A stretch of DNA of 34,379 nt from a virus. Its lineage: Duplodnaviria > Heunggongvirae > Uroviricota > Caudoviricetes. The stretch lies in the IMG/VR virus record IMGVR_UViG_2734482779_000009; one strand, 5' to 3'. Under the pieces are notes generated by a model. That model did no database searches. It saw nothing but the letters and a program-made list of their open reading frames with translations, and was not told where the DNA came from. The position numbers and the translations under genes are program-made. Position 1 is the first letter of the stretch. Every line of letters begins with the position of its first letter. Below, piece after piece: positions 1,141 to 14,915 of the stretch.

Positions 1141-1527
1141 TTAATCCCGACTGTCATCCGGTTCATCATCGTCTTCGAATAACTGCCCCTGTAACCGGCT
1201 GATTTCTTCCTTTCTTACGCGCTTTACCAGGTTGTAAATCCAGGGAACTGAAACCCTGAATCTGCGGGACAGTTCGTGGTGGTTACGTCCGTTAAACGCC
1301 TCATAGATTTCACGGTCACGCTGGCTTATCTTCCATCTCATCCCCATAGGAAAATAAACGTTTTGCCCGCCCCAGACCTGCATCATGCGGTTCGCGACGG
1401 CCTGACCAATCTGGTCGGCAACTTCGGGCTCAATATCAATAATCTCGCGAACGGTCTCAGAGGTATGCTGTGCCAGTTCCACCAGGAGTTCCGGCCCTTT
1501 ACTTCGAAACTGATTCAGGTCGCTCAT
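1141..1527 (-). CDS. mor: Mor/C-family transcriptional activator (middle/late gene activator)
   Basis: 128 aa; acidic end and C-terminal helix-turn-helix-like segment (ELSRRFRVSVPWIYNLVK) typical of Mu Mor/C; sits at the distal end of the early operon as in Mu. Confidence 0.75.
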   Translation of the reverse strand: MSDLNQFRSKGPELLVELAQHTSETVREIIDIEPEVADQIGQAVANRMMQVWGGQNVYFPMGMRWKISQRDREIYEAFNGRNHHELSRRFRVSVPWIYNLVKRVRKEEISRLQGQLFEDDDEPDDSRD

Positions 1528-5158: not shown

Positions 5159-6352
5159 TTAAACCCCTTTGACAACGTCAGCGTTGACCTGTGGAACCCC
5201 GATTTCAGCGGCCAGATTCATGGCGGCTATTACCAGGTTACTGACGGCCAGCGGATACAGCAGGCTGACCCTGTTTTTACGATGACTTCCCGGATTGCTC
5301 AGGCGGGCACGTATGGCATCCACTGCGCCGGCGTCCATAATGTCCGTCAGTTGTTTACCGGCCCGTTGCAGTTTGAACGTCAGAAACTCTTCAAGGTTAT
5401 TGTCGAGAGGCAGAAGTTCGACCACCTCACAGCGCTGAACGACTTCACGGACTTCCATATTGCGTTCAGACAGTTTTGTCGCCAGTTCCGGCTGGCCAAT
5501 CAGCACGATGGACAGCAGTTTTTTGAAACCGGACTCCAGCTCAAAAAAGCGTTTGAGGTGTTTCAGTGTCGGAACGGGCAGACTGTGGGCTTCCTCAATC
5601 ACCAGAACGTGGCTGAACCCCGCCTGGCTGCTGTCTTTCAGGACGCGATGCAGCTGGCGAAAGCGGGCGTCCTGACTGCGTCTGATGCTTTCCAGTGGTG
5701 CGATGGTACTGATAATGGCTTCGGCAATCGCTGCTGCCTTCAGGGTTTTCCCTTTCACATCGTTGTCTTCCATGGCGATGACGTATGGCTCGATAATAAT
5801 TACCGGCGCATTCTCGCGGTTGATACGTTCAGTCAGGTCACGGCGCAGCGTGGATTTACCCGCACCGGACTCACCGATGACAGCCATAAACCCGCCATGA
5901 CGGGCTGTCTGGTACAGCGCCTCACGCACGTAGCGAATGTCCGGGGTGGTGAACACATCATCAGAACCCTGCATGGCTTCGTCGGCGAACGGGTCACGGA
6001 AAAGACCAAACGCTTTTTTGGTTGCTGGAAATAACACCTGTTTTTTGAGTAACATATTCTCTTCCTCACTGAGGCTCGTTTTATCTGTGGTACCCGCTGT
6101 ACGGGGCGTGGCCGCGCCCTGTACAGCATCAAAACTCTTCGCTGTATCAATCCCCTGACTTTCCAGCCAGGACGCAAGACGCCGGCGCACTTCTCCGGGG
6201 CTGGTGCGGGGCCACGCGTTATGATTCACAATCTGGGCCAGCGTGGCCTCAGAAACATCGACAGCTCTCGCCACCACCGCCTGTGGAATACGGGCCTCTT
6301 TCAGTTGCTGCTTCAGTACCAGCATGTTTCCCTCCTTAGTTGCCGTTAACAA
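5159..6352 (-). CDS. B: DNA transposition protein B (AAA+ ATPase, Mu B-like)
   Basis: 397 aa; N-terminal HTH-like region; Walker A GESGAGKST; Walker B-like HVLVIEEAH; overlaps the 3' end of A by 17 nt. Confidence 0.85.
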   Translation of the reverse strand: MLTATKEGNMLVLKQQLKEARIPQAVVARAVDVSEATLAQIVNHNAWPRTSPGEVRRRLASWLESQGIDTAKSFDAVQGAATPRTAGTTDKTSLSEEENMLLKKQVLFPATKKAFGLFRDPFADEAMQGSDDVFTTPDIRYVREALYQTARHGGFMAVIGESGAGKSTLRRDLTERINRENAPVIIIEPYVIAMEDNDVKGKTLKAAAIAEAIISTIAPLESIRRSQDARFRQLHRVLKDSSQAGFSHVLVIEEAHSLPVPTLKHLKRFFELESGFKKLLSIVLIGQPELATKLSERNMEVREVVQRCEVVELLPLDNNLEEFLTFKLQRAGKQLTDIMDAGAVDAIRARLSNPGSHRKNRVSLLYPLAVSNLVIAAMNLAAEIGVPQVNADVVKGV

Positions 6353-9365: not shown

Positions 9366-9680
9366 TTACAAACGACTACCTGAAATAACTCGCTGGTTGA
9401 TTTCGTTAATACGATCCTGTGCACGTGCCATCTCGTTACTGTGGGCCATAGCGATCTGCAGTAACTGGATGCCCGGCGCGAAACGCCCGTTTTCCAGTTT
9501 CAGGGCCAACCCTTCTTCAATGAGGGTGTTGAGTGCCCGGTTGATGTTTGCCGGTGACTCGTGCAGTGCTGCCGCCAGTTCACCGTTGGAAATACCGTTC
9601 AGGGCATGACCACGCAGCGCTTTCAGTACCCGGAGGATGCGACTGCCGGAGCTTGAAACATTCGTCTTACTCATCTGCAT
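9366..9680 (-). CDS. Winged-helix DNA-binding protein (IclR/MarR-like HTH), probable early regulator
   Basis: 104 aa; RILRVLKALRG...GISNGELAAALHESPANINRALNTLIEEGLA resembles a wHTH recognition module. Confidence 0.5.
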   Translation of the reverse strand: MQMSKTNVSSSGSRILRVLKALRGHALNGISNGELAAALHESPANINRALNTLIEEGLALKLENGRFAPGIQLLQIAMAHSNEMARAQDRINEINQRVISGSRL

Positions 9681-9726
9681 ACCTATTTTTCAATATGTGA
9701 TAATCTTTTTCGTATGCTGTATCTTT

Positions 9727-9915
9727 TTAAGCGGCGTCAGTGATGGTTTTTAATCCCAGCTTTACAGCGATTTCATGGGCTTTGCCATAGTTCGCTTTTA
9801 CCTGGCCATTCAGTACGCGGTAAACCTCCGCTCTGGTGTAGTTGTTCTGTTTTGCCCACTGGGTAAAAGTGATCCCATTGCGACGGAAATGAGCTTTGAC
9901 CTGGTCTGCAGTCAT
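9727..9915 (-). CDS. Ner/Nlp-like small HTH DNA-binding protein (62 aa); first gene of the early operon
   Basis: Pattern RRNGIT...A......T.AEVYRVLNG...KA.EIA.KLGL resembles Ner/Nlp-family proteins; GGAGACA RBS; divergent from the repressor gene. Confidence 0.55.
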   Translation of the reverse strand: MTADQVKAHFRRNGITFTQWAKQNNYTRAEVYRVLNGQVKANYGKAHEIAVKLGLKTITDAA

Positions 9916-9967
9916 TGTTGTCTCCTTGTTTGGTGCAATGATGTTTGCGTTATGTGTGATAGATTAT

Positions 9968-9985
9968 TGTCTAAAAATTTAGACA
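9968..9985. promoter_or_regulatory. Candidate operator: inverted repeat TGTCTAAA-AA-TTTAGACA in the divergent repressor/early promoter region
   Basis: 8-bp perfect half-sites with a 2-bp spacer, 12 nt upstream of the repressor ATG, in the 81-bp gap between divergent genes. Confidence 0.45.
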
Positions 9986-9996
9986 GAGCAAGTTTT

Positions 9997-10350
9997 ATGT
10001 CCATTAATTTAGAAAAAATACATGCGCGTCTCATTTCAGAATTAAAACGTGTTGGTCCTTTGGCGGTATCTAAGTCCACTGGTATCTCGCGGGCGACGAT
10101 TTATAACTGGATGGAAAAAGGAAATATCCCGCTAGATAAACTGGTAGTTTTAGGAGCAGCAGGAGTAGATGTTGCCTTCATTCTTACGGGTATGAGCACA
10201 GATGGTGAGGTGGAAATTCAGAACCGGATATCCCCCGAAAAACAAAAATTAATAGATACTTTTGACGACATGACACCAGAGCAACAACGCTCATTTCTTG
10301 AGATTGGGCGATTCTATACTCAGCCAAAACCAGGAAAAATCGCAGGCTGA
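9997..10350 (+). CDS. XRE-family HTH repressor (candidate lysogeny repressor, c-like)
   Basis: 117 aa from the ATG at 9997 (the ORF-track start at 9775 is an upstream artefact); HTH STGISRATIYNWMEKGNIPLDKLVVLGAAGVDVAFILTG; divergent from the early operon. Confidence 0.65.
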   Translation: MSINLEKIHARLISELKRVGPLAVSKSTGISRATIYNWMEKGNIPLDKLVVLGAAGVDVAFILTGMSTDGEVEIQNRISPEKQKLIDTFDDMTPEQQRSFLEIGRFYTQPKPGKIAG

Positions 10351-10436
10351 TTCTGACCTGGACACAAAGGACAGGTGGTTGATCTGGACGCTTTCAGAAA
10401 GCGCCGTCAGTAGCATGGCAGGAATGGGCTGATTTA

Positions 10437-10468
10437 CCGGAAAGCATTGTGCTTTCCGGTTTTGTTTC
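10437..10468 (+). terminator. Candidate rho-independent terminator downstream of the repressor gene, possibly bidirectional
   Basis: Stem CCGGAAAGC (10437-10445) / GCTTTCCGG (10451-10459), loop ATTGT, followed by TTTTGTTTC; sits between the convergent repressor and dam genes. Confidence 0.55.
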
Positions 10469-11231
10469 AGAAGTTGCAGATTACCAGTTCACGGCGCGGC
10501 GTGGGTTTCCCCGCCAGACTGTAGTTGATATTCACCGTCTGTATGTTCAGTTCAGTGAACACCCGACGCATCTGCGGAATGTCGTTCACCGAGATAATCA
10601 TCTTTCCTCTGATGCACCGGGCCAGTTCTGCGAGTAGTGTGTAGTTCTCTTCAGGAAAATCCACACCATAGCCTTCCGTCCCCAGATAGGGCGGATCACA
10701 GTAGAACAACGTGTGCGGACGGTCATAACGCTTAATGCACTGGTGCCAGTCCATGTGCTCTATCACCGTTCTGGAAAGCCGCAGGTGTGCCGCTGACAGT
10801 TCTTCTTCAATACGTAGCAGGTTGAAGCGTGGCGGAGATGTGGTGGATGTGCCGAAGCTGTGCTCTGCCACCTTGCCACCAAATGCCTGCTTCTGGAGGT
10901 AGTAGAACCGTGCCGCACGCTGGATATCCGTCAGTGTTTCTTCCGGGGTGATCTGCAGCCATTTGTAGATCTGCCGGCTAACCAGCGCCCATTTGAACTG
11001 GCGGATAAATTCTTCCAGGTGATGTTTTACCACCCGGTACAGATTCACCAGTTCACCATTGATATCGTTAATGACTTCGAGCTTGCCGGGAGTCTTGAGA
11101 AAATAGAGCGCAGCTGCGCCGCAGAACGGCTCCACATAACATTCATGCGCAGGAAACAGCGGCAGGATGTGTTTTGCCAGGCGGCGTTTGCCACCAATCC
11201 ATGGAACGATGGGTAATGTCTGCGTTTTCAT
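10467..11231 (-). CDS. dam: Dam-family N6-adenine DNA methyltransferase (orphan, phage-borne)
   Basis: 254 aa; WIGGK, FCGAAALYF (motif I) and catalytic DPPY (FYCDPPY) in the Dam order; no cognate restriction gene adjacent. Confidence 0.85.
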   Translation of the reverse strand: MKTQTLPIVPWIGGKRRLAKHILPLFPAHECYVEPFCGAAALYFLKTPGKLEVINDINGELVNLYRVVKHHLEEFIRQFKWALVSRQIYKWLQITPEETLTDIQRAARFYYLQKQAFGGKVAEHSFGTSTTSPPRFNLLRIEEELSAAHLRLSRTVIEHMDWHQCIKRYDRPHTLFYCDPPYLGTEGYGVDFPEENYTLLAELARCIRGKMIISVNDIPQMRRVFTELNIQTVNINYSLAGKPTPRRELVICNF

Positions 11232-11278
11232 AATCTGTAAGCCTTTTACAATTATTAAAAATATGGCAGGCTAGTCTG

Positions 11279-11290
11279 GTCTCGCGAGAC
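11279..11290. promoter_or_regulatory. Perfect 12-bp palindrome GTCTCGCGAGAC upstream of dam (candidate regulator binding site)
   Basis: Seen directly; about 48 bp upstream of the dam start codon; flanked by AGTC / GACT. Confidence 0.3.
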
Positions 11291-11336
11291 TGACTGAACC
11301 TTGGTCGGCTCACAGTGCATTCCTGTGGGACGATGG

Positions 11337-11377
11337 CCAGCCCGGCTTTCGGGTGCCGGGCTGGTCGTTCTTTCATG
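11337..11377. other. GC-rich stem-loop (10-bp stem) in the dam leader / intergenic region; possible plus-strand terminator or regulatory structure
   Basis: CCAGCCCGGC (11337-11346) pairs with GCCGGGCTGG (11355-11364), 8-nt loop, then TCGTTCTTTC on the plus strand; no T-run on the minus strand. Confidence 0.35.
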
Positions 11378-11420
11378 ATGCGGCAGGGATGAAGTGATTT
11401 CTGTTAATGTGGTTTAGGGA

Positions 11421-11636
11421 TTATCCGGGGCGATTTTCTGACCTTATCTGGTCCAGGGCATAAGTGATCCCTTCTGCAAAAACAGAAGTATCGAACTGCT
11501 TTTGTATTTCCTGAAAATGAACAGTGGCACGACAGATACTCAGTTCTCCGCGATGTAACCGGATAATATCTTCCAGAACATTGTTCACTGCTTCGGCACG
11601 GCGCTGATGTTCTGTTAACGTTAATCGGGGATTCAT
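11421..11636 (-). CDS. Hypothetical small protein (71 aa)
   Basis: Strong RBS AAGGAG 6-7 nt upstream of the ATG; no recognised motif; between the Walker A gene and dam. Confidence 0.55.
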   Translation of the reverse strand: MNPRLTLTEHQRRAEAVNNVLEDIIRLHRGELSICRATVHFQEIQKQFDTSVFAEGITYALDQIRSENRPG

Positions 11637-12014
11637 GATGCACTCCTTAAATGATGATTTTTATGTACTCACCGGCAAAATATTCTGCCGATTACTGAAC
11701 ACGCATCCGGCACCTCAGGTTTTGATTTATCTTGGTTTTTTCGATATCCCGGACTAGGTTGATCACGACCAGAAAAAGTGCCGGTATTTTATTGATACGC
11801 TGATATGGCTTCGGGATAACAGCTATATCCGTTACTCTCAGTTGCTGGCTGTGGGAGCGGCTGATGTCGTCCTCACGGAAAAAACGCTCTGTCTGCTCAA
11901 TGCCATGCCGACCTTTCTGCAGCCCCGGCCCGTACCATTTAAAGAGTCGCTTCTGGATGCAGTAAAAACCGGTGAAAATGCAGTCATCGCTGAATGCGTA
12001 TCCCGGATTATGAG

Positions 12015-12758
12015 TTACGTGTTTAATGAACGTAAGTGAGGTTTATCCGCTGTCTGCATAATTCCGATAGCCAGTGCGAGGGGAAGTAATTCCGGGGAAA
12101 CTTTTTCAAACAGCGATTCCCATTCTCCTCTCGCCATCACTCTGTCCAGCCCGCCCTCCAGCTGCATTTCAGCAATCTTCCTGATTTCCCGGAACAACGC
12201 CGCTTTGATCTCTTCATGCTCAGCTTTATTTTCCGGTGTCAGAATGTATTCGTCGAAGAACCGGGGAGACTGGTTAACGGGGATTGTGTTCACCGGGAGG
12301 TGTTCCTGCTTCCCGTACTTCGGGGCCGAAAAACATTCTGTTGGCTGACCGGTGAGTTTACGTAACTCCTTCATGAGCAGCTCCTGATCGTAAACTGTCA
12401 TCAGTGCCGCAATGGTGGCATGCAGTGCATCGGGTAGTATCCAGGGTTGCCGGCCCGTGGGGCATATAACATCCAGCAGCTCATTCGTCCGACAGATACG
12501 CTCCTCGCCGTATGACAACAGGCCCTGTCCCGTGTATTCCTCCAGCCTGATCACTGTGCCAGCCCGTGGTTTCTGCCATGTGCTCAGATCATCCCCGCTC
12601 ATACGGCGCTCATCGTCCACGTCTGCGGCATCGACAATGACGCTGCCTCCGAATTCCTGTTTTATCACCTCTTCTGTCCGCGCCAGTATGTAACTTTTAC
12701 CGCTGCCCACAGGACCGGACACGGTGACAGTGATGACCGGATTCAGTGTATGTGTCAT
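12015..12758 (-). CDS. Hypothetical protein with N-terminal Walker A / kinase-like P-loop (GPVGSGKS); function unknown
   Basis: 247 aa; Walker A at residues 15-22, then VIVDAADVDDE about 20 aa later (kinase-like acidic motif); C-terminal ~170 aa without recognisable motifs; transcribed divergently from the lysis/late operon. Confidence 0.6.
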   Translation of the reverse strand: MTHTLNPVITVTVSGPVGSGKSYILARTEEVIKQEFGGSVIVDAADVDDERRMSGDDLSTWQKPRAGTVIRLEEYTGQGLLSYGEERICRTNELLDVICPTGRQPWILPDALHATIAALMTVYDQELLMKELRKLTGQPTECFSAPKYGKQEHLPVNTIPVNQSPRFFDEYILTPENKAEHEEIKAALFREIRKIAEMQLEGGLDRVMARGEWESLFEKVSPELLPLALAIGIMQTADKPHLRSLNT

Positions 12759-12862
12759 GTTGCATTCTCCTCTGTGAATAATTCATCGTTTATCCTGCAC
12801 ATCCCGTATCCCCGGCTCTCTTAACGCGCTTTAAAATCCTTCGCGCCCCGTATTTGTGATGC

Positions 12863-12885
12863 TGTCTCCACCAGACAAGGAGACA
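12863..12885 (+). promoter_or_regulatory. Stem-loop overlapping the holin ribosome-binding site (possible translational control)
   Basis: TGTCTCC (12863-12869) / GGAGACA (12879-12885), 9-nt loop; the 3' arm contains the GGAG of the Shine-Dalgarno; ATG at 12889. Confidence 0.3.
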
Positions 12886-12888
12886 CAC

Positions 12889-13239
12889 ATGAAAAACCTG
12901 AAAAAATTCATTCCCCCTGTTAAAAAACCTCGCCTCAGCGGCTGGCTGCTGACCTCAGTGCTGCTGCTGGGCACCATCGCTCTGGTATCGCCACAGCAGT
13001 TGCCTGTTGTGATCTACAAGCTGGCACTCATCACGCTGGCAGCAGTGCTGGGTTACTGGCTTGACCGTTCGCTCTTCCCCAAAGCCCGTCCCGGTCAGTA
13101 CCTGAAACATGACGACAGGCTGATGGCTGATGGGCGTTTCCCTGTACAGACCGGCCTTCACCTGGTGTTTTCTGCTGCGTTAATCCGCCGTGCACTGATT
13201 GTTGCAGCGGTCTGTCTGGCCGTTGCAATGGGGCTTTAA
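12889..13239 (+). CDS. Holin-like membrane protein (three predicted TM helices), first gene of the lysis cassette
   Basis: 116 aa from the ATG at 12889 (RBS AAGGAGA); hydrophobic segments GWLLTSVLLLGTIALV, VVIYKLALITLAAVLGYWL and LVFSAALIRRALIVAAVCLAVAMGL; directly upstream of the endolysin. Confidence 0.5.
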   Translation: MKNLKKFIPPVKKPRLSGWLLTSVLLLGTIALVSPQQLPVVIYKLALITLAAVLGYWLDRSLFPKARPGQYLKHDDRLMADGRFPVQTGLHLVFSAALIRRALIVAAVCLAVAMGL

Positions 13240-13241
13240 TC

Positions 13242-13979
13242 ATGAACTGGCCGCAGATAACCTGGATTGTATGCATGTCCCTGAAGCTGGCGTTCGAAGC
13301 CTTTCGGGTCTTCATCAGAACCGAACGCCTGTCAGTCCGCGCCGGGACCTTTCTGGTTCATATGGCACGGGTATTCTTTGTCGCAATGTTGCTCTGGTGT
13401 GGCGGCTTTTTCAGTCAGGCATCCGCAGCACAGCCTCCGCGGGCTGCCCTGCAGTATCGCGATGATGTGATCCGTAATGCCCGGCTTGAATGGGGACTGT
13501 CTGCGCCGGTGGCTGATTTCGCTGCGCAACTGCATCAGGAAAGCGGCTGGCGACCTGATGCGGTCTCGCCGGCTGGTGCTCAGGGGCTGGCGCAGTTCAT
13601 GCCTGCCACTGCCGACTGGATAAGTCAGTTGATGCCGGGGCTTAACAGCCGTGAGCCGTTTAATCCGGCATGGGCTATCCGGGCGCTGGTCAGCTATGAC
13701 CGCTGGCTGTGGCAACGTGTCAGCGCCGCCAGCGACTGCGAGCGTATGGCCATGACGTTGTCGGGCTATAACGGTGGCCCGGGCTGGGTGCGCCGTGACC
13801 AGCGGCTCGCCGCACGTCTGGGGCTGGACAGTCAGCGCTGGTTCGGACATGTCGCCACGGTGAATGCCGGACGCAATGCTGCCAGCTGGCGGGAGAACCG
13901 CCAGTACCCGCAGCGTATTCTCTTCACGCTGGCACCGCGTTATCTGTCATGGGGAGGGGCAAGCTGTGTGGGGATATAA
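13242..13979 (+). CDS. Endolysin: lytic transglycosylase (SLT domain) with N-terminal signal or SAR sequence
   Basis: SLT signature AAQLHQESGWRPDAVSPAGAQGLAQFMPATA; internal ATG at 13362 gives MARVFFVAMLLWCGGFFSQASAA, a signal/SAR-like N-terminus, so the true start may be 13362. Confidence 0.8.
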   Translation: MNWPQITWIVCMSLKLAFEAFRVFIRTERLSVRAGTFLVHMARVFFVAMLLWCGGFFSQASAAQPPRAALQYRDDVIRNARLEWGLSAPVADFAAQLHQESGWRPDAVSPAGAQGLAQFMPATADWISQLMPGLNSREPFNPAWAIRALVSYDRWLWQRVSAASDCERMAMTLSGYNGGPGWVRRDQRLAARLGLDSQRWFGHVATVNAGRNAASWRENRQYPQRILFTLAPRYLSWGGASCVGI

Positions 13980-14592: not shown

Positions 14593-14915
14593 CACTGCAG
14601 GTTGAATTCTGGACGGTGGTGAGTTTTCTGCTCACCTTCATGGGGTTTGTTGGAGGGCTCGCCAAATGGTTGTTCAGTAAAACAGAAGAACGCCAGGCGG
14701 CACGATTCGCCTCCCTTGAACAGGCCCTGCAACAATCCGCCTCCAACTGGGGCGAGCTGGAAAAAGAATTTATGCGATTTAAAGCGGATTTACCGCTGAA
14801 TTATGTCCGTCGCGAGGATTATATCCGTGGCCAGACAGTTATCGAGGCCAAACTGGACGCGCTTTACAACAAACTGGAAGTGGTACAGCAGTACCGCAAT
14901 ACCGGAGGTCAATAA
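14589..14915 (+). CDS. Small membrane protein (108 aa) after the spanins; possibly lysis-associated (releasin-like position)
   Basis: N-terminal TM FWTVVSFLLTFMGFVGGLAKWLF; ATGA overlap with Rz. Confidence 0.45.
   Translation: MTLQVEFWTVVSFLLTFMGFVGGLAKWLFSKTEERQAARFASLEQALQQSASNWGELEKEFMRFKADLPLNYVRREDYIRGQTVIEAKLDALYNKLEVVQQYRNTGGQ

Follow-up and report, generated by a model that had tools for sequence, protein, structure and literature searches.

The block of genes between the repressor and holin genes of the transposable prophage described here is a recombination-prone accessory region of separable cassettes that have a leftward direction in common, and is not one three-gene system. In the reading we favour, which we hold at a little under even odds (about 45%), the leftward unit of this segment would come on with the late genes and would serve in DNA modification and in host interaction or counter-defence. 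The window analysed is the whole 34,379-nt stretch of IMG/VR record IMGVR_UViG_2734482779_000009. A preliminary description of the same DNA had proposed a single leftward cluster, made up of an orphan Dam methylase, a 71-aa protein (p71) and a 247-aa Walker A protein (p247), in a position of the kind that carries morons.

The host element is a Bcepmuvirus-type (BcepMu-type, Mu-like) transposable prophage, a type common in E. coli (~12% of complete genomes), and the region is 94% identical to that of phage PhiKM, which is classified as Bcepmuvirus. Of 5426 complete E. coli genomes, 636 have the holin and SLT genes, 585 the p247 region and 520 dam. The holin gene (12889..13239, plus strand; Pfam Holin_2-3, 1.5e-41; start position per PGAP) is the first of the rightward lysis/late operon. 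At the opposite end of the slot, a terminator scan located a GC-rich hairpin with an 11-bp stem (10436..10460) between the 3' ends of the repressor and dam genes, 7 nt past the dam stop codon. The T-run that follows it on the plus strand makes this hairpin the terminator for the repressor's transcript. What lies between repressor and holin varies from relative to relative, bearing out the early view of the slot as a variable accessory region. BcepMu carries gp18-20 there, on the strand opposite to the leftward genes of the window; KP12 carries dam and a DUF2441 gene, IAI39-type prophages carry two plus-strand genes and a truncated p247, and prophages of Citrobacter and Salmonella have different cargo. 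Cargo co-oriented with the repressor occurs in other relatives, as a BcepMu gp18-like membrane protein or as a membrane protein pair of 297 and 153 aa. Cassette duplications and deletions were also seen in the region.

The three minus-strand open reading frames first noted, at 10467-11231 (254 aa, dam), 11421-11636 (71 aa) and 12015-12758 (247 aa), are real and conserved. They do not form one contiguous cluster, however, and the 379-bp gap at 11637-12014 carries a fourth gene, on the plus strand, that had been overlooked. This gene (11635..12039, 134 codons; phrog_2266, i.e. PHROG 2266, 1e-43) is antisense to its neighbours and overlaps both, at its start with the start codon of p71 and at its 3' end, by 25 nt, with the p247 stop. 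It is annotated by PGAP in strain C51, has a paralogue with 28% identity aligned over residues 7-127, and is intact in 11 of the 13 copies read (window included). The window copy is broken by an in-frame amber TAG (11755-11757) where relatives have CAG. An amber codon is also found in L006, and in L015 and L018 a clean 325-bp deletion removes the gene. One point against the reading we favour is the antisense placement of this gene between p247 and p71, where it would run into read-through transcription.

p71 (minus strand; phrog_4490, 7e-51) is a conserved phage protein of unknown function, with a strong RBS (TAAGGAG, 6 nt 5' of the ATG) and a dN/dS of 0.49 over six unique sequences. It is a small protein restricted to one lineage, being found only in the E. 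coli lineage with full-length p247. Searches of Pfam, NCBIfam, PADLOC and PDB gave it no match, and the small Citrobacter ORF in the corresponding position is not similar to it. Nothing among p71, the phrog_2266 proteins and the slot neighbours matched PADLOC defence models. With p71 limited in this way and dam an independent cassette (see below), the idea that the three genes act together is not sustained.

The protein nearest the holin, p247 (12015..12758, minus strand; phrog_3787, 4e-162), has the architecture N-K-D-J-C. Its N domain (aa 1-75, 12534-12758) holds the Walker A motif GPVGSGKS (aa 15-22, 12693..12716) that was recognised at the outset; 180 of 182 family members retain the G-x4-GK core, and 177 have the motif in its strict form, GxxxxGK[ST]. 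G20 and K21 are invariant, and G15, G18 and S22 are at least 90% conserved. As a conserved Walker B, the nearby VIVDAADVDDE is doubtful: D43 of VIVDAAD varies across the family and position 46 is acidic in most members, and it is E50, in the helix after the strand, and W61 that are nearly invariant instead. The domain is conserved to ~30% identity across unrelated phages. It also stands alone in phage proteins of 70-90 aa, whose genes lie in mixed contexts (early regions; next to HNH/TerS, within ~1 kb in two unrelated siphophage groups). A gene with the N domain also comes after one for a DNA methyltransferase in L032, an unrelated viral contig.

Only the first ~48 residues of p247 are P-loop-like, in the generic ABC-type order beta1, Walker A, alpha1, beta2, and a profile search of PDB returned generic P-loop matches only (E ~5e-5 to ABC nucleotide-binding domains). 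The AF2 model of the full-length protein was poor (pLDDT 50); one of five N-domain models was confident, and DSSP assigned no strands in it. A fold search with the p247 models, in which there are only three strands, matched no known fold, and fold comparison of the N domain revealed no complete P-loop alpha/beta core of at least five strands. We describe the N domain as a putative mini P-loop head of ~75 aa, predicted to run beta-strand, Walker A, helix, strand, helix, strand. To our knowledge, a P-loop domain of this size is far smaller than any characterised P-loop NTPase.

Named families were considered for p247 and rejected. The likeness to a small nucleotide or small-molecule kinase seen in the preliminary description finds no backing, with no kinase family over threshold (for Zeta_toxin, 3 of 17 members reached E 0.01, and this only across the P-loop), no fold match, residues past 75 that are interchangeable modules, and natural 182-aa alleles from which residues 52-124 are deleted. 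Matches to ABC-type ATPases are confined to the surroundings of Walker A (residues ~2-52) and, with E values of 1e-4 to 0.05, fall well short of the cut-offs, and no SGG-type signature is present in the sequence. The KAP family NTPase profile (PF07693) gave E 0.072 and 12.8 bits against a cut-off of 20. Some truncated p247 alleles carry the NCBI labels 'ABC transporter ATPase', 'KAP family NTPase' or 'P-loop NTPase fold protein'. Against the defence models of PADLOC-DB v2, p247 gave nothing significant, with weak mad8 matches over the Walker A segment in several members (E 0.001-0.012), and no homology or structural link of p247 or p71 to anti-defence, defence or regulatory families was found.

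The remainder of p247 consists of module K (aa 76-99, 12462-12533), module D (aa 100-136, 12351-12461), module J (aa 137-174, 12237-12350) and module C (aa 175-247, 12018-12236), all on the minus strand. These C-terminal ~170 residues had been said to match nothing, which is true for curated libraries, but they split into modules common with Salmonella proteins. At least 31 architectures occur among 158 cluster representatives of the family, mostly from Salmonella and E. coli. Clustering at 90% identity gives more than 220 clusters, all unnamed, with lengths of 168-370 aa among the best 120. The tail modules are mostly helical, 25-110 aa long and interchangeable, and module I is found alone at the same position in KP12. 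As judged from these sequences, the p247 family is large and uncharacterised, with a constant head and shuffled tails. The dN/dS of p247 is 0.22, and every segment is at or below 0.34, indicating purifying selection. Many E. coli copies are truncated, frameshifted or chimeric (141-, 158- and 182-aa forms), so the phage can dispense with the C-terminal modules; at least the N-terminal half is retained at 642 of 701 E. coli prophage places (~92%). In prophages of E. coli, Citrobacter and Salmonella, p247 is always the first gene divergent from the holin gene. IAI39-type prophages and L027 have an N-domain gene and no dam, and the domain is absent from BcepMu and KP12.

Alignment of the intergenic regions of six diverged phages reveals a divergent control region common to p247 and the holin/late operon (12759..12888, both strands). 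It contains a conserved inverted repeat, TTAACGCGCTTTAA (12821-12834), the p247 RBS GAGGAG (12767-12772, minus), and two weak -10-like hexamers, CAGGAT (12797-12792, minus) and GATGCT (12858-12863, plus). Each hexamer, picked by eye, starts 30.5 bp from the repeat centre, which places that centre at ~-43. No -35 element was seen in 12759..12888. The leftward genes had been credited with their own promoter region divergent from that of the holin; p247 is indeed divergent from the holin, but no sigma-70-type promoter (-35/-10 pair) for the leftward genes was found. The composite motif tested for enrichment, TTTAAAGNG-N27-33-AGGAT, was defined after both occurrences had been seen. Phages whose repressors differ nonetheless conserve the repeat and the two hexamers, which disfavours the repeat as an immunity operator, and KP12 keeps the repeat and has no N domain.

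The window also encodes a Mor-family activator (1141-1527, minus strand; Pfam Mor PF08765, 5e-41). Published work gives the Mor binding site as a 16-bp element with its centre at -43.5 (PMC4390567), and Mu late promoters are described as being without -35 elements (PMC4390567, PMC2582627). The putative repeat-to-hexamer geometry of the control region agrees with that described for Mor of Mu, and a Mor homologue is at hand. We infer that expression of the leftward unit is Mor-activated and belongs to the lytic phase.

The timing of expression bears on a different reading, unlikely in our view, in which p247, with or without p71, would be a moron expressed in the lysogen, working as an NTP-dependent sensor/effector or toxin-like kinase to protect the host or keep other phages out, with variable C-terminal modules that recognise different invaders. 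The variable accessory slot does adjoin the immunity gene, and the cargo of other relatives there is co-oriented with the repressor; Walker A is conserved, mad8 is the only PADLOC model weakly matched by several members (E 0.001-0.01, P-loop segment), and the polymorphism of p247 is compatible with an arms race. Expression in the lysogen, which the moron, toxin and exclusion roles suggested in the preliminary description imply, nevertheless fits poorly with a region where no sigma-70-like promoter was found, where an activator-type inverted repeat is common to p247 and the late operon, and where p247 points away from the repressor transcript with a terminator between them. This promoter architecture points instead to activator-dependent expression in the lytic phase. 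p247 is moreover without a complete ATPase or kinase core, and no PADLOC family was significant.

If the N domain regulated or assisted late transcription, lysis timing or packaging, and C-terminal variation were neutral mosaicism, the fixed place of p247 at the head of the late region would be explained. Such a phage-internal function agrees with the constant position of p247 next to the holin in all three host genera, with the classical arrangement of a regulator divergent from its target operon, with the stand-alone N-domain genes near HNH/TerS and with the retention of the N-terminal half in ~92% of E. coli copies. We nonetheless consider it quite improbable. BcepMu and KP12 have the same late-promoter repeat without the N domain, so late transcription can do without the domain; some of the stand-alone N-domain genes are found in early regions, a DNA-binding motif is absent from p247, and the C-terminal modules are under purifying selection and do not drift.

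The gene at the far end of the leftward unit, dam (10467..11231, minus strand, 254 aa), encodes a D12-class (Dam-family) N6-adenine DNA methyltransferase. Its match to Pfam PF02086 (D12 MTase; E 1e-28) is full-length, residues 11-234 aligning with profile positions 1-248 out of 253. It matches the PADLOC type II methyltransferase model MTase_II at 1e-110 and scores 114.0 bits against TIGR00571 (Dam), just under the 114.85 cut-off. Dam had been recognised from DPPY and FxGxG. The profiles and the catalytic DPPY, read from the translation within FYCDPPYLGTEG, agree with this, but AdoMet-binding motif I is EPFCGAAALYF, in which FCGAA gives FxGxA, a slight deviation from strict FxGxG. The dN/dS of dam is 0.12, from two unique sequences only. 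Pfam and the PADLOC nuclease and restriction-modification models recognised no cognate restriction endonuclease nearby, and the neighbours, of unknown function, change from phage to phage; dam looks like an orphan (solitary) methylase, as first supposed. Against the reading we favour, Dam+ E. coli would seem to have no need of a further Dam methylase.

Upstream of dam lies a structured 5' leader of ~150 nt (11232..11377, minus strand). An RNAalifold analysis of seven diverged copies gave 36 pairs with compensatory changes in 8; 95% of cells are paired, the observed covariation was reached by none of 500 shuffles, the G-U pairs are consistent only with the dam-sense strand, and the single-sequence fold has a z of -4.3. 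A search of Rfam found no match. The leader comprises hairpin 1 (11335-11366), an internal hairpin around the palindrome GTCTCGCGAGAC (11279-11290), and a long-range helix (helix 3) in which CUGUGAGCC (11307-11315) pairs with GGCUUACAG (11235-11243). All nine pairs of helix 3 are paired in 100% of the seven sequences, with G-U wobble changes. The helix is predicted to cover -12 to -4 before the dam AUG and to span the GG of the likely Shine-Dalgarno sequence. It would probably occlude the ribosome-binding region and so gate dam translation.

Leader and dam have p71 upstream in E. coli, a DUF2441 gene in KP12, a 113-aa gene in Citrobacter, a 173-aa zinc-ribbon-like gene in L028 and directly the P-loop gene in L030. 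With at least four different, unrelated upstream neighbours, dam and its leader read as a self-contained cassette. In L030 the leader takes up the 168 nt that separate the P-loop gene from dam, which implies that the two are co-transcribed.

We think it very unlikely that the P-loop protein and/or p71 is a specificity, activity or translational co-factor of Dam, comparable to Mu Com opening the mom leader. Such a link would suit the downstream, co-oriented position of dam in most E. coli copies, Citrobacter, L028 and L030, the direct succession of P-loop gene, leader and dam in L030, the N-domain gene after a methyltransferase gene in L032, a leader that appears to sequester the RBS and so to need an activator, and the small p71 placed just upstream as com is to mom. 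The parts are nonetheless found apart: leader and dam occur without p71 in KP12, Citrobacter, L028 and L030, and in KP12 without the N domain, and the N-domain gene occurs without dam. p71 is also unlike the small Citrobacter ORF at the equivalent place, and with one cysteine and no zinc-finger pattern it is unlike Mu Com. There is equally little to recommend decaying or selfish cargo, that is, ORFs without current function kept by linkage in a recombination hot spot, for while truncated, frameshifted and chimeric p247 alleles are frequent, phrog_2266 has its amber codon here and in L006, and cassettes are duplicated or deleted, the dN/dS values (0.22 for p247 with segments up to 0.34; 0.49 for p71), the strong RBSs of p247 and p71, and the persistence of the N domain at ~30% identity across unrelated phages speak against it.

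The segment is best understood, in our opinion, as carrying what is probably a lytic-phase accessory operon with a role in DNA modification and in host interaction or counter-defence; a toxin or exclusion moron made by the lysogen fits less well. We propose that the leftward unit, with p247 as its promoter-proximal gene, would be switched on by Mor during lytic growth along with the late genes. Dam would modify progeny DNA. The P-loop-headed p247 would be a cytoplasmic factor in host interaction or counter-defence, its conserved head binding a nucleotide or phosphate ligand and/or driving oligomerisation and its variable modules supplying target specificity. A bolder, joint proposal, which we regard as a long shot, is that the p247 family is a new class of lytic-phase, Mor-controlled polymorphic effector with a minimal ~75-aa P-loop head, and that the dam leader is a new cis-regulatory RNA gating a phage DNA-modification enzyme. 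Were this so, the head would bind its nucleotide or phosphate ligand as an oligomer, and each shuffled C-terminal module would engage or neutralise a different host factor, e.g., a defence protein.

The closest comparison is the slot of BcepMu, gp18-gp20 between repressor gp17 and holin gp21, which shares the genus-level genome plan: a leftward early operon, a rightward repressor, a non-core block, then holin, SLT and Rz. That slot is as variable among relatives as the one here, but its three genes lie on the other strand and are unrelated in sequence, and BcepMu has no dam or N-domain protein there. In ABC-type ATPases, Walker A and the next helix and strand align with p247; the likeness stops at about residue 48, and p247 lacks a Q-loop, LSGGQ, conserved Walker B and H-loop, its whole head being ~75 aa, with a free 70-90-aa form and no fold match. 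Phage-borne orphan D12 methyltransferases resemble this Dam in their full-length D12 domain, DPPY and the lack of a recognised cognate endonuclease, whereas dam here has a conserved, covarying ~150-nt leader absent from Rfam.

The com-mom operon of Mu, a late, activator-dependent DNA-modification gene with translation controlled by an RBS-sequestering hairpin, also belongs to a transposable phage and has a small ORF just upstream of its modification gene. The promoter here is probably of Mor/C type, and the leader helix is predicted to sequester the ribosome-binding region in the same manner. Unlike Mu, the window has Dam and not the unrelated Mom, and no Com-like zinc-finger protein; the small gene just upstream does not look like a cognate RNA-binding activator, the leader being kept without p71 in several phages (KP12, Citrobacter, L028 and L030), and the region adjoins the immunity genes, not the right end of the genome. 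Polymorphic phage proteins include the T4-type internal proteins, with a conserved capsid-targeting sequence, and the Bro-N/KilA-N mosaic proteins. p247 has no sequence relationship with these, but by analogy it resembles them in its constant head, its combinatorial tails and its single fixed, hyperplastic locus.

The window follows the BcepMu genome plan: a leftward early operon (Mor at 1141-1527, GemA, Gam, a MuB-like AAA protein and transposase), a rightward repressor, a non-core block, and a rightward holin/SLT/Rz and late operon. Escherichia phage PhiKM, classified as a Bcepmuvirus, shares 94% identity with the window's 2.7-kb region. We read the region between repressor and holin, with a probability of roughly 0.8, as a mosaic of independent cassettes that holds a fourth gene, broken here, a polymorphic protein with a mini P-loop head, and a conserved, structured leader upstream of dam. 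The preliminary description had listed three minus-strand genes, which exist as reported: dam, a methylase gene (10467-11231); p71, encoding a 71-aa protein (11421-11636); and p247, encoding a 247-aa P-loop-headed protein (12015-12758). The list was incomplete, however, because a plus-strand gene (11635-12039) fills the 379-bp gap between p71 and p247. PGAP annotates a 134-aa protein within this gap in E. coli strain C51, the gene matches phrog_2266 at 1e-43, and a 28%-identical paralogue of its product aligns over residues 7 to 127. Its start codon and that of p71 overlap on opposite strands. Among the 13 copies read, the window's included, 11 are intact; the window and one other locus (L006) have a stop at codon 41 (TAG at 11755-11757 in the window), where intact relatives have CAG. 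The two stop-bearing alleles are just 95% identical in DNA, and their shared stop may reflect recombination, recurrent mutation or tolerated truncation. A clean 325-bp deletion removes the gene in two loci (L015 and L018), where p247 and p71 lie 57 bp apart.

The Dam assignment holds, with a full-length match to PF02086 (1e-28), a match to the PADLOC type II MTase model (1e-110) and a TIGR00571 score of 114 bits against a cut-off of 114.85. The DPPY motif is present as described, but motif I reads FCGAA and not FxGxG. Judged by these profiles, dam encodes a bona fide D12/Dam-family methyltransferase. The p71 and p247 proteins match phrog_4490 and phrog_3787, both families of unknown function, and no function could be assigned from Pfam, NCBIfam, PADLOC or PHROGs to p247, p71, the product of the phrog_2266 gene or the different cargo genes of other loci. 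An accessory slot and an orphan Dam are both ordinary for temperate phages.

Mapping the window's proteins onto 37 loci, with subsequent inspection of several, shows the genes between repressor and holin to be separable cassettes as far as gene content can tell. A reading in which the three genes act together, left open in the preliminary description, is not supported by this co-occurrence check, as the neighbours of dam vary. In the loci inspected, dam is always accompanied by the same ~150-nt upstream element, but the gene before this element differs: it is p71 in the E. coli type, while KP12, a Klebsiella phage, has a plus-strand DUF2441 gene there, Citrobacter one of 113 aa and locus L028 one of 173 aa that is zinc-ribbon-like; in locus L030 the P-loop gene directly precedes the element. 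IAI39-type prophages and L027 have the P-loop gene and no dam. The E. coli lineage with full-length p247 is the only one in which p71 and the phrog_2266 gene were found, so their co-occurrence with p247 is inseparable from simple linkage. In two loci (C51, L003 2294-3119, and L016) dam and p71 are separated by an additional 635-bp cassette, comprising a 126-aa phrog_2266 paralogue, a duplicated 26-codon 5' end of dam, and a second copy of the leader that has diverged with its hairpins preserved. The window is itself mosaic over 9366-12758. Its proteins and those of viral contig L019 are 100% identical from transposase through p71 and just 94.7% identical in p247, and the comparison with C51 gives the opposite pattern; this switch implies that recombination took place recently, with its breakpoint in the phrog_2266 gene or close by. 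Other cargo occupies the slot elsewhere: L028 (8018-9308, minus strand) carries a 297-aa protein and a 153-aa multi-pass membrane protein, and IAI39 (L004, 2294-3952) a BcepMu gp18-like membrane protein (phrog_6521, 'moron') and a 193-aa protein. Both sets are co-oriented with the repressor, gave no matches to PADLOC, and are candidates for lysogen-expressed functions.

Prophages of this type are common. Among 5426 complete E. coli genomes, the holin/SLT segment was found in 636 (701 places), at least part of the 11300-12900 segment in 585 (642 places), that segment at >=80% coverage in 475, and dam in 520. The prophage type thus occurs in about one in 8-9 of these genomes, among them those of human clinical isolates (O25:H4 strains, for example), and many Salmonella carry relatives. 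As a source of phage-host interaction genes the variable region is therefore both widespread and unexplored; searches of the literature on BcepMu-like prophages of E. coli turned up no work on these accessory genes.

The leader upstream of dam (11232-11377, minus strand, ~150 nt) is conserved and covarying. It accompanies dam in loci from E. coli, a Klebsiella phage and Citrobacter, and two unassigned viral contigs have the same pairing. A common fold of seven diverged copies has 36 pairs with 95% of cells paired and compensatory changes at eight of the pairs. None of 500 column shuffles matched this covariation, and shifting the partners by 1-3 columns lowered pairing to 29-52%. Several G-U pairs are compatible only with the dam-sense strand, which marks the element as an mRNA leader and not an antisense RNA. 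A 9-bp long-range helix joins CUGUGAGCC (11307-11315) to GGCUUACAG (11235-11243), and since the latter arm lies 4-12 nt before the dam AUG, the ribosome-binding region would be occluded. From this modelled fold, the leader is a probable translational control element and a candidate new regulatory RNA. Searches of 9500-13300 against Rfam, leader included, gave no matches, and the element appears to be undescribed so far. We also noted a sigma-70-like promoter match (TTTTCA-16-TACAAT, 11225-11252, plus strand) directed rightward from the dam start into the leader, for which hairpin 1 followed by TTCTTTC would serve as terminator and yield a ~115-nt antisense RNA. This would be an alternative or additional reading of the leader region, and the G-U pattern favours the sense-strand structure. 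A Com-like activation of dam by p71 was rejected because the leader is present without p71.

The preliminary description gave the leftward genes their own promoter region, yet a sigma-70 scan found no promoter in the 130-bp p247-holin intergenic region, and no -35. The region instead holds a conserved inverted repeat, TTAACGCGCTTTAA (12821-12834), flanked by conserved weak -10-like hexamers, CAGGAT leftward and nATGCT rightward, each 30.5 bp from the repeat centre. Phages with different repressors retain the repeat, as does KP12, a phage without the N domain of p247, so the repeat is neither an immunity operator nor a p247 autoregulatory site. With the hexamers numbered -12 to -7, the centre of the repeat is at about -43. 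Passages in PMC4390567 and PMC2582627 describe the Mu Mor dimer as binding a 16-bp element that is centred at -43.5 and contains two inverted repeats of 5 bp, and Mu late promoters as having -10 hexamers and no -35 hexamers. A Mor-family protein is encoded in the window (1141-1527). The half-site arrangement TTTAAAGNG-N27-33-AGGAT has a second copy at 14778-14819 (plus strand) in the late region, its only occurrence in the window besides the p247 promoter, inside a 108-aa ORF upstream of head/packaging genes. This copy is conserved among E. coli-type loci and may be a second Mor-type promoter, a suggestive match only, as the pattern was defined after both sites had been seen. A further inverted repeat, GTCTCC-N9-GGAGAC (12864-12884, plus strand), includes the holin Shine-Dalgarno AAGGAG and is retained in each of the six diverged intergenic regions in the alignment; according to where transcription starts, it could form a hairpin in the RNA or be bound by a protein. 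In L030 the leader occupies the entire 168-nt gap between the P-loop gene and dam, which indicates that the two are co-transcribed. We infer that the leftward unit would be an activator-dependent middle/late transcription unit and not a lysogen-expressed moron. That it is controlled by Mor and acts in lytic growth is a tentative proposal, for which we would offer slightly less than even odds.

Outside close E. coli alleles, similarity to p247 is limited to residues 1-75, the N domain. Alignments resolve the family beyond this point into a chain of short modules in varying order, with 31 architectures among 158 representatives when 11 manually defined modules are used. The window's protein is N-K-D-J-C, and its D and C modules recur elsewhere in the chain of Salmonella proteins. 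The C-terminal ~170 aa had been said to match nothing; no Pfam, NCBIfam or PADLOC family falls on any module, but the modules are shared with Salmonella proteins. An unannotated ORF divergent from the KP12 holin gene (L002 ~5500-5766, minus strand) is module I without the P-loop head, so modules can be independent proteins at this locus. A profile search with full-length members gave 223 clusters at 90% identity; those with a named source are nearly all from Salmonella enterica, and the best 120 of the 223 are 168-370 aa with none named. The family appears to be undescribed as such, on record just as PHROG 3787 'unknown function' and 'hypothetical protein'. A small-kinase reading is not supported, given the lack of kinase family matches, the natural 182-aa alleles without residues 52-124, and the interchangeability of all sequence past residue 75.

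We guess, and hold it rather unlikely, that p247 is a cytoplasmic host-interaction or counter-defence factor. The guess draws on a constant-head/variable-tail polymorphism on which purifying selection acts, on a gene that is dispensable and runs in the same direction as a DNA-modification gene, and on a protein that lacks membrane and secretion signals. Its head would serve to bind a nucleotide-like ligand, to oligomerise or both, with target specificity conferred by the C-terminal modules; the tails would then be a ready catalogue of small interaction domains. Among the rivals, lysogenic defence would place p247 with cargo such as the repressor-co-oriented genes of L028 and IAI39, and the proposed Mor-type arrangement of its own promoter would point to lytic growth. 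A core late-phase function could be read from gene order, the P-loop gene always being the first divergent from holin in E. coli, Citrobacter and Salmonella prophages; a late-gene regulator was considered unlikely because the late promoter is still there in KP12 and BcepMu, both of which lack the N domain. An anti-repressor was rejected, as one p247 allele group is found alongside repressors of three different types. A Dam co-factor would suit co-transcription in L030, and P-loop genes without dam speak against it. Decaying cargo, as the broken fourth gene might suggest, fits poorly with dN/dS values in alignable E. coli alleles of 0.22 for p247 (each segment 0.05-0.34) and 0.49 for p71. Both holin and dam give 0.12. 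These values come from small samples, of 6 or 7 unique sequences for p71, p247 and holin and 2 for dam. Should the counter-defence, nucleotide-binding head and leader-RNA readings all fail, the region would be an ordinary mosaic moron slot.

An exhaustive HMMER search with p247 gave 51 representatives. Across the N domain G20 and K21 are invariant and G15, G18, S22, I28, E50 and W61 nearly so, and the Asp of 'VIVDAAD', earlier singled out as a feature, varies. The Walker A G-x4-GK core is present in 180 of 182 family members, in the strict form GxxxxGK[ST] in 177. Structure prediction gave a pLDDT of 50 for full-length p247; for the N domain one model out of five reached 85.6, and it has two helices and no assigned strands. 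The domain alone forms 70-90-aa proteins in unrelated phage contigs. Nearly all matches of a 79-column N-domain profile in a 5.8-billion-protein set were short fragments, and a scan of genome contigs was dominated by the non-specific Walker A pattern, leaving one locus. In two unrelated siphophage groups, stand-alone or short N-domain homologues of 70 aa (L039-L041, 6001-6213) and 151 aa (L067, 40-495) are encoded no more than ~1 kb upstream of HNH/TerS/TerL, and another directly follows a DNA methyltransferase gene (L032); these stand-alone contexts are heterogeneous, with no consistent partner found.

The only PADLOC model matched, weakly, by p247 and three Salmonella/Citrobacter-type homologues (P0030, P0034 and P0037) was mad8 of the methylation-associated defence system MADS (E 0.001-0.012); the matches cover the Walker A segment only (p247 residues ~8-54) and probably reflect generic P-loop similarity. 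PDB searches with single proteins gave generic Walker A matches only, and the N-domain profile matched just the generic beta1/Walker A/alpha1/beta2 segment of ABC-type ATPases, together with designed P-loop proteins. Similarity to this segment explains the NCBI labels 'ABC transporter ATPase' and 'KAP family NTPase' on truncated p247 alleles. The minimal head appears undescribed so far and, unlike ABC-type ATPases, it has no signature motif, Q-loop or H-loop. Should nucleotide binding by its 75 residues prove real, the head would be a naturally occurring equivalent of the 'P-loop prototype' proteins that have been designed and used to model early enzyme evolution.
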